A stretch of 64,000 bases of DNA from an uncultured Candidatus Saccharibacteria bacterium (GCA_964610335.1 CAZSVP010000001.1:287442-351441); one strand, 5' to 3'; shown: positions 59,002-59,270, counted from the first letter of the stretch. The notes: generated by a model not told the origin, from the letters alone. Made by a program: numbers and translations.

Positions 59002-59077
59002 CGGGGTGTGGCGCAGTTGGTAGCGCGTACGGCTGGGGGCCGTGAGGTCGCAGGTTCAAGTCCTGTCACCCCGACCA
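59002..59077 (+). tRNA. tRNA-Pro (anticodon GGG)
   Basis: Hand-folded: acceptor CGGGGTG/CACCCCG, D arm gcgcagttggtagcgc, anticodon stem tacgg/ccgtg with loop ctGGGgg, T arm gcaggttcaagtcctgt, CCA encoded. Confidence 0.8.
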
Positions 59078-59159
59078 ATTGTGGGCGCTCAAAAAAGCGA
59101 GCTTCCGCAATTGGTAAGGTATGATTGAACCTGCGGAATATAGTTGCCGTAGGCAACGA

Positions 59160-59270
59160 GCAGGTTAGCCCGAGTGAAACTCGAGCGCTGTCCTGTCACC
59201 CCGACCAGAAATGTCTTAAATCTGCGCGCAGGTTAGCAAGAATAAAATATCTGGCGCTGTCCTGCCACCA
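59160..59270 (+). repeat. Two degenerate tandem copies of the tRNA-Pro 3' half (GCAGGTT…GTCCTGYCACC(CCGA)CCA)
   Basis: Copy 2 at 59160-59207 ends gtcctgtcaccccgacca, identical to tRNA nt 60-76. Copy 3 at 59228-59270 ends gtcctgccacca. Both start gcaggttagc, like the tRNA T-stem gcaggtt. Confidence 0.55.

Follow-up and report, generated by a model that had tools for sequence, protein, structure and literature searches.

Copies of the tRNA-Pro 3′ end close a conserved, structured non-coding module behind the tRNA gene in Saccharibacteria

We analysed a 64,000-nucleotide stretch of DNA (hereafter the window) from an uncultured Candidatus Saccharibacteria bacterium (GCA_964610335.1 CAZSVP010000001.1:287442-351441), in which the gene for tRNA-Pro(GGG) is followed directly, on the same strand, by a non-coding module that ends in copies of the tRNA's own 3′ end. 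The final 18 nt of the tRNA, GTCCTGTCACCCCGACCA (59060-59077), recur exactly at 59190-59207, and a degenerate third copy, GCGCTGTCCTGCCACC, lies at 59254-59269 and is 94% identical to 59185-59200. These tails belong to two tandem units, a proximal one (59116-59207) and a distal one (59219-59276). We find that the module is conserved in related species, that its structure covaries with the T-stem of the tRNA, that it is inherited together with the tRNA, and that paralogous modules lie behind other tRNAs.

The tRNA-Pro locus and its tail copies

The tRNA gene has the T-stem GCAGG/CCTGT and the T-loop TTCAAGT, and the features that surround it are as follows.

58985-58993, + strand: extended -10-like sequence TGGTATAAT, 8 nt 5′ of the tRNA start, read by eye
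59002-59077, + strand: tRNA-Pro(GGG) with encoded CCA (ARAGORN; Rfam tRNA model, 63.3 bits)
59074-59115, + strand: H1, a long hairpin that begins in the tRNA 3′ end, with ACCA:TGGT paired (inverted repeat I1)
59125-59135, + strand: segment A, TTGAACCTGCG, which is fully reverse-complementary to the T-arm 5′ strand and T-loop at 59049-59059 (inverted repeat I3, 11/11)
59143-59157, + strand: H2, a small hairpin, GTTGCC-GTA-GGCAAC, from folding
59160-59166, + strand: segment B, GCAGGTT, which copies tRNA positions 49-55 (T-stem 5′ strand with T54 and T55)
59167-59189, + strand: H3, a conserved hairpin, AGCCCGAGTGAAACTCGAGCGCT, in place of T-loop nucleotides 56-58 (junction motif GTTAGC...GCGCTGT)
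59190-59207, + strand: proximal tail, an exact copy of tRNA positions 59-76
59219-59276, + strand: distal degenerate unit, with A′ AATCTGC (59219-59225), B′ GCAGGTT (59228-59234), H3′ (59235-59258), tail′ GTCCTGCCACC (59259-59269) and AAACTAG
59283-59311, + strand: promoter-like TTTACT-N17-TTAGAT, 5′ of a small membrane open reading frame (ORF) and of HIT, UppP and RNase HI; not called by the consensus scan

The copies are separated by 112 nt (first to second) and 51 nt (second to third), and two matches with at most three mismatches to the 18-nt tail were seen in 0 of 100 dinucleotide shuffles of the window. An earlier note on this DNA, made from the sequence alone, had reported the exact recurrence, and this is confirmed; the note gave its length as 17 nt, but the string that it listed is an 18-mer. 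The third copy that it described is also real, as the 94% match indicates and as does a profile built from eight other Pro units, without the distal unit itself, which matches 59209-59262 (E=5.6e-5 in ~0.5 Mb). This copy is nonetheless shorter than described, since its tRNA-derived portion is confined to GTCCTGCCACC at 59259-59269, with one substitution, and the sequence beyond is divergent. The string GCAGGTTAGC, said to precede each downstream copy, is likewise present (59160-59169 and 59228-59237), although it stands 20-21 nt 5′ of the copy, with a hairpin in between. We found no further tRNA fragments at a distance in the window for Pro or Asp, and a 4-mismatch tail match 18 kb from tRNA-Asp is at chance level.

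The proximal tail comprises T-loop positions 59-60, the T-stem 3′ strand, the acceptor 3′ strand, the discriminator base and CCA. Segment A is complementary to segment B as well as to the T-arm 5′ strand of the tRNA, and B has two mutually exclusive partners, A and the tail's copy of the T-stem 3′ strand. A covariance model (R1) scores 67.6 bits on 59160-59207, a sequence that is in its training set. The distal unit is without H1 and H2, and its truncated tail, CACCAAACTAG, resembles the tail CACCAACTAG of a relative (L055; L numbers denote the sequences compared), which suggests that the distal unit may be the older of the two. What is copied is tRNA positions 49-55 and 59-76: searches for cloverleaf remnants (D arm and anticodon arm) downstream with ARAGORN and the Rfam tRNA model find the intact gene only. 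A degenerate duplicate of the whole tRNA was considered and rejected, as its D-loop-like string CGCAATTGGTA (59106-59116) is the strand of H1 that pairs with ACCAATTG. In an Rfam search at E<=10, tRNA is the sole known RNA family at the locus. From its sequence and position, TGGTATAAT is probably the promoter of tRNA-Pro; a two-hexamer consensus scan of 58800-59600 found no canonical promoter and no intrinsic terminator (GC-rich stem plus T-run).

The earlier note had allowed that the repeats might be an assembly artefact, and this is ruled out by the agreement of four independent assemblies. The intergenic sequence is identical in Logan contigs of SRR14932608, SRR24114279 and SRR24114281, one contig covering the entire region. 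In a strain that is 1.7% diverged (SRR23867504, L005) there are four substitutions, all within the distal unit or spacer, and no changes in the tRNA 3′ end, H1 or the proximal unit. As a separate observation, short-read contigs from several samples (the end of L001; the starts of L002, L003 and L005) break inside tRNA-Pro, at 59029-59051 of the window and about k-1 bases from the tRNA ends. We attribute these breaks to de Bruijn graph branching, because the identical tRNA is common to several co-occurring Saccharibacteria species.

Conservation, covariation and modules at other tRNAs

We compared 24 Saccharibacteria tRNA-Pro loci, the window included; the nearest loci, located by way of the UppP gene, come from Saccharibacteria metagenome-assembled genomes. 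A non-coding module of ~110-130 nt lies directly 3′ of tRNA-Pro in eight of the 24 (the window, L011, L012, L014, L020, L023, L054 and L055), and the UppP proteins of the loci compared are 57-85% identical to that of the window. Two units are present in the window and in L020, and a single unit elsewhere among the Pro loci; L022 holds a decayed remnant and L015 holds H1 only. The module persists at UppP identities of only 57-66%, at which the adjoining intergenic DNA is no longer alignable. It also remains with tRNA-Pro in L020 and L023, which have other genes downstream, and in L055 (3010-3207) the tRNA and its module are inverted as one cassette while the flanks are otherwise in order (PaaX, hypothetical ORF, small ORF, HIT, UppP). 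The module thus tracks the tRNA and not the neighbouring genes. A leader of the downstream operon was rejected on the same grounds, as the module keeps with the tRNA despite changed downstream genes or inversion of the pair. Across 65 Saccharibacteria tRNA loci, all near-exact, same-strand tail copies lie +110 to +153 nt from their own tRNA, and none at island distance.

Structure is conserved where sequence is not: H1, H2 and H3 fold in every species examined despite differing sequences. At the position of H1, eight species have hairpins of unrelated sequence (-17 to -33 kcal/mol) with CCA:UGG pairing. Changes on one side of a stem are compensated on the other in H1, H2 and H3 alike, H2 for instance reading GTTGCT-GAA-AGCAAC in L011 and GCTGAC-GTA-GTCAGC in L055. 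For the helix formed by B, H3 and the tail, 88.9% of cells are paired in a nine-sequence alignment, and both sides have changed in 6 of 15 pairs; the alignment scores 0.33 for covariation where shuffles score 0.13, a value of 0.33 is reached by 0 of 500 shuffles, and slid controls are at most 41% paired. Coming from few and related sequences, this covariation is supportive of the helix and not conclusive. The tRNA itself provides a further example. In L012 and L014 the T-stem is GGCAG/CTGCT, not GCAGG/CCTGT, and segment A (CTGCC), segment B and the tail are all changed to match, the tail of L012 agreeing exactly with its own tRNA over 18 nt. The junction motif GTTAGC...GCGCTGT hardly varies.

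Similar modules are found behind other tRNAs. The window itself holds one behind tRNA-Asp.

37815-37932, - strand: paralogous module behind tRNA-Asp(GTC) (38009-37933, - strand), with a terminator-like hairpin, AAACCGGC-GAA-GCCGGTTAGG-hairpin-CCGCTAT-CCGGA-TCGAGGCCGCCTA, where TCGAGGCCGCCTA is the degenerate tail

R1 scores 40 bits on 37815-37867 of this module, which is also in its training set. Across Pro and the window Asp, the junction consensus reads T-stem 5′ strand, TTAGS, hairpin, SCGCTRT, T-stem 3′ strand, and the motif is confined to sites behind these tRNAs in 420 kb of Saccharibacteria DNA, bar two weak chance matches. A second module type, with the junction GAAGGCG(CC/TT)AGCCGCC, lies behind tRNA-Asp in L048/L049 and behind tRNA-Arg(CCT) in L058, and includes exact 18-nt tails of Asp in L048 (3019-3190) and of Arg in L058 (5350-5675, - strand). 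The tRNAs are unrelated, and the cores of these Asp and Arg modules are, by eye, about three-quarters identical over ~95 nt. In L058 a second, decayed unit follows, within ~600 nt of structured non-coding DNA. In all four cases (Pro, Asp twice, Arg) tail identity begins at tRNA position 59, that is, at the 58/59 boundary. Our literature search found nothing on such tRNA-tail modules in Patescibacteria.

The Asp module of the window is absent from its closest relatives, L045/L046, whose adjacent GT2 protein is 81% identical. The DNA around tRNA-Asp (~35400-39900) has a GC content of 52-63%, against a background of 42-46%, and its ORFs include one that is HD-domain-like by eye (36633-37088), a MOSC-like ORF and several that are unassigned; a MOSC-domain gene stands at the equivalent position in L045/L046. 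Gene content that differs between close relatives suggests that this neighbourhood may be a variable or acquired region.

Comparison with RtT and the origin of the module

The module has a counterpart in design in the RtT repeats behind E. coli tRNA-Tyr, which have been known since the late 1970s and are still unexplained. RtT (Rfam RF00391, gathering score 45 bits) covers the 178-bp repeats of E. coli tyrT/tyrV and the gene rttR. There are four units behind tRNA-Tyr at tyrT/tyrV (133-137 bits with the Rfam RtT model), one of which is annotated in RefSeq as the small RNA RttR, and this RNA is reportedly released through processing of the tyrT transcript. According to a passage of PMC3318445, which cites Bosl & Kersten 1991, rttR has been shown experimentally to be encoded by one tyrT repeat unit. 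Both in E. coli and here, non-coding tandem units stand directly 3′ of a tRNA gene on the same strand, and each unit ends in the tail of that tRNA, CCA included: an exact 18 nt in the window, and in E. coli the last 19 nt of tRNA-Tyr, AATCCTTCCCCCACCACCA. Both also combine an inner hairpin with two segments related to the T-arm 5′ strand, one complementary to it (GAACCTTC in E. coli) and one that repeats it (AAGGTTCGA in E. coli). Matches to the RtT model in plasmid records are confined to Enterobacteria, and many are in megabase-size records labelled plasmids, so that they carry little information.

The likeness extends in part to sequence. The window unit and RtT unit 1 have in common a collinear series of strings, namely TCCGCAATT, AAGG.ATGA..GAA, the 17-mer GTTGCCG(T/C)AGGCAACGA, CCCGA and AGCGCTG, and H2 with the following GA matches the RtT inner hairpin at 16 of 17 positions. 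A Smith-Waterman comparison of the two units scores 43.5, versus 21.9+-4.1 in dinucleotide shuffles (0 of 1000 reach it). This pairwise similarity is significant for the window and L011 type only; it falls short of significance for L012 and is at most weak for L023 and L054. The Rfam RtT model has no match at E<=10 in the window at 58000-60500 or in L049 at 1600-1960, and neither a covariance model nor an nhmmer profile of the Saccharibacteria units matches the E. coli locus. There are differences of design as well. The host belongs to another phylum and the tRNAs are Pro, Asp and Arg in place of Tyr; the unit measures ~65-130 nt here and 178 nt in E. coli; the small hairpin lies between A and B here and after B in E. 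coli; and the outer stem of the Rfam model has no counterpart in the window type, where no 5′ segment pairs with the tail. In the window, L011 and L012 units there is no tail-complementary segment, and the sole partner for the tail is the tRNA's own 5′ strand, while the L048 Asp module has a G-U-rich partner for its tail. We therefore call the module RtT-like in design and make no claim of homology.

Based on these data, we propose that a conserved non-coding module linked to the tRNA, a “tRNA echo”, has these repeats as its 3′ ends and would act as an RtT-like structured trailer, a reading to which we give an even chance of being correct. Each unit would present an extended mimic of the T-arm followed by the acceptor 3′ strand and CCA. 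Because the module lies on the same strand directly behind the tRNA, and because neither a promoter nor a terminator can be recognised between the two in the window, it would be co-transcribed as the 3′ trailer of tRNA-Pro. The predicted trailer structure consists of H1 and H2 together with one of two pairings, A:B or B:H3:tail. Its 3′ end, which resembles that of a tRNA, may be presented to the factors that process tRNA 3′ ends or recognise them. This could lead to a discrete trailer RNA of ~130 nt, competition with the tRNA's own T-arm and acceptor pairing, or both. A similar mode of expression is exemplified by 3′ETS-leuZ of E. coli, a small-RNA sponge made from a tRNA trailer, which does not copy the tRNA 3′ end; by analogy, the echo may likewise yield a stable or functional RNA. 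The perfect proximal tail and decayed distal tail lead us to infer a recombination step, in which the tRNA 3′ end and the echo tail would recombine by unequal crossing-over or gene conversion and so generate tandem units, renew the proximal tail and produce clean loss in some lineages. This reading predicts a ~130-nt trailer RNA ending in CCA, alternative pairing of A:B and B:tail, and recombination with the tRNA 3′ end.

The predicted folding of the tRNA with the proximal unit bears on the possible competition. An alternative fold has -102.6 kcal/mol, versus -89.2 kcal/mol with the canonical acceptor stem enforced, and L011 behaves similarly. In this alternative the echo tail is base-paired to the 5′ acceptor strand of the tRNA and segment A to the T-arm 5′ strand, and B:H3:tail stands in for the T-arm. 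Competition between the folds is thus possible in a calculation that ignores tRNA tertiary structure and co-transcriptional folding.

A number of observations weigh against a structured trailer. The module is dispensable, being absent from 14 of the 24 tRNA-Pro loci and decayed in L022, and the tails of L014, L020, L023 and L054 are degenerate. In L020, L023 and L054, where H1 has the T-run that is lacking in the window, and in the Asp module, H1 makes a good intrinsic terminator that would limit read-through into the echo. Homologous cores behind unrelated tRNAs, each with exact 18-nt tails, are not explained by selection on an RNA alone, and template-switch mutation can also yield compensatory changes in palindromes without selection. 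Profile methods support membership in RtT in neither direction, and we infer transcription and processing of the echo from its sequence.

A broader form of the proposal, which we consider doubtful, is that echoes are a widespread and so far overlooked class of non-coding elements that hitchhike on tRNAs and include E. coli RtT. Such elements would re-target between tRNAs, in every case copy positions 59-76, co-evolve with the T-stem and refold the precursor, and if this were true, refolding of the precursor could serve as a built-in maturation switch or as a mimic of an uncharged tRNA 3′ end. An RtT-like design in the Saccharibacteria, which belong to another phylum than E. coli, with three other tRNAs, T-stem covariation and a fixed 58/59 junction, turns a one-off curiosity into a comparative problem.

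The earlier note had read the repeats as the footprint of integrase-mediated insertion and excision, by past elements since excised or by very small non-coding ones that are still in place. Its description is borne out, in that the 3′ end of the tRNA is partially copied in series and very small non-coding elements do persist; an integrase as their cause is not supported. Neither an integrase nor cargo lies within -6 to +7.6 kb of tRNA-Pro, and among the 24 tRNA-Pro loci there is neither an occupied variant nor a repeat at a distance of kilobases; the comparison across relatives that the note had recommended, through a genome scan (21 loci), a metagenome scan (12 loci) and 12 contig look-ups, gave no site with integrase and cargo. 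What relatives do have is the same repeats, with conserved structured DNA between them that co-varies with the tRNA T-stem and no occupied variants, which is largely the outcome that the note itself had named as telling against its reading. Relatives without the module (L024-26 and L029; for Asp, L045/46) are too distant or rearranged to display a precise empty site. A search of IMG/VR viral contigs for the attP junction GCGCTGTCCTGTCACC returned one chance match, in a tRNA-less, coding-like stretch. The module also lacks the features of a miniature inverted-repeat transposable element, as its ends (ATTGTGG... and ...GAGCGCT) are not inverted repeats and the duplicated part is 18 nt of tRNA. 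For an integron attC-like site (GTTRRRY), agreement with the consensus is only partial, and GTT derives from the universal T-loop. We reject the integrase claim in part only, because the 58/59 boundary, the spread to Pro, Asp and Arg and the patchy distribution would also fit a site-specific or mobile origin, and because transcription of the echo is our own supposition. Short direct repeats of a tRNA 3′ end alone are no evidence of an integrase, and island finders that rely on them will mis-call such loci.

Integrating elements do occur at tRNAs in these bacteria. In L050 (7227-8761), from the same metagenome-assembled genome as L012, a large serine recombinase gene (Resolvase plus Recombinase, 499 aa) is encoded on the strand opposite to tRNA-Asp, and its 3′ end extends into the 3′ part of the tRNA gene. 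Phage-like small genes adjoin it; no echo is present at this locus, and the far end is beyond the DNA retrieved. We take this to be an ordinary integrated element at tRNA-Asp.

A serious though somewhat unlikely alternative is that a miniature element, non-autonomous and either mobile or integrative, has the T-loop or 3′ end of tRNAs as its target, and that the module is such an element or what has become of its end through domestication. The tail would then be the displaced original tRNA 3′ end, the element having brought a replacement 3′ end with a terminator (H1); A/B and H3 would be recombinase recognition structures, possibly in folded single-stranded DNA, and newer insertions would push older ones downstream. 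As in the attL and attR sites of integrase islands and prophages, there is a direct repeat of the tRNA 3′ end with a fixed left boundary and an intact proximal tRNA, and the repeat has a length like the 16-20 nt that are typical of P4-type islands. This explanation also accommodates the constant 58/59 boundary in four independent cases, tails that are either exact or clearly decayed, the proximal-to-distal decay in the window, L020 and L058, homologous cores behind different tRNAs in different genomes, a patchiness that extends to close relatives (the Asp module in the window and not in L045/L046) and the precedent of L050. Set against this, no integrase, transposase or cargo lies near or between the repeats here or in the relatives examined, none of the 24 Pro loci is an occupied variant, the junction is absent from the viral contigs searched, and terminal inverted repeats are lacking. 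Only 112 nt separate the window repeats, this DNA is conserved, structured and T-arm-mimicking, unlike that of attL/attR pairs, and 112-154 bp is too small for an ordinary attP-bearing circle. Successive insertion predicts H1 in distal units, which are without it; A and B lie outside the exchanged block and yet track the tRNA T-stem; and conservation with compensatory changes between species argues for vertical inheritance.

The remaining explanations account for less of the data. That the repeats are neutral debris, the decaying trace of an old local tRNA 3′ duplication or an old attR scar, with hairpins kept up by quasi-palindrome correction and the tail by occasional gene conversion, is in our view improbable. 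It agrees with the loss or degradation of the module in many lineages, with the accumulation of changes in the window's distal unit and with a role that we have only deduced, but it does not account for persistence at 57-66% UppP identity where the flanking intergenic DNA is unalignable, for three separate short segments (A, B and tail) that co-vary with the tRNA T-stem, for the almost invariant junction motif or for the paralogues at other tRNAs. Retroviral plus-strand strong-stop DNA copies 18 nt of the primer tRNA, stopping at m1A58, and one could imagine that reverse transcription of the mature tRNA, stopped by a modified A58, gave the tail as complementary DNA, in which case the echo would be either a retro-element or the result of template switching. 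The entire support for this idea comes from Pro, Asp and Arg, whose tails have exactly 18 nt and the 58/59 boundary, as does a retroviral or long terminal repeat (LTR) primer-binding site (the same 18 nt, tRNA positions 59-76, with the boundary next to A58). The resemblance is a lead only: such a site is part of a coding retro-element, and this locus has neither an LTR nor a nearby reverse transcriptase gene (an RVT_3 match at 60663-61085 is an ordinary RNase HI). The idea also leaves segments A and B unexplained, as well as the copy of the T-arm 5′ strand, and the identity in E. coli RtT is 19 nt, so that we hold this origin to be very improbable. We think it just as improbable that the hairpin stack is purely a transcription stop or insulator between a strong tRNA promoter and the downstream operon. 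H1 is terminator-like in several relatives and a conserved promoter-like motif follows the module, but the window is without a T-run terminator, neither an exact tail copy nor tracking of the T-stem would be needed, and the module keeps with the tRNA despite differing downstream genes or inversion.

Flanking features

The promoter-like motif at 59283-59311 would mark the downstream limit of the module, and the sequence TA(T/A)GCTTTAC is kept at the equivalent place in L011, L012, L014 and L054. In the stretch 59283-59321 the -10 of the promoter-like motif coincides in part with the initial ATG of the small membrane ORF; gene callers start this ORF at 59319, and its mRNA may be leaderless. An ORF of 62 aa with a TTG start (59125-59313, + strand) runs across both units and is treated as spurious, since L011, L012 and L055 have a single unit and the ORF could not be conserved there as it is; the E. 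coli RtT repeat similarly holds an annotated 29-aa “protamine-like” ORF, tpr. The genes called from -6 to +7.6 kb around tRNA-Pro are, by Pfam, ordinary housekeeping genes. Lastly, a bacterial RNase P RNA of class A (225.9 bits) is encoded at 61115-61505 (+ strand), 2 kb 3′ of the tRNA-Pro locus.

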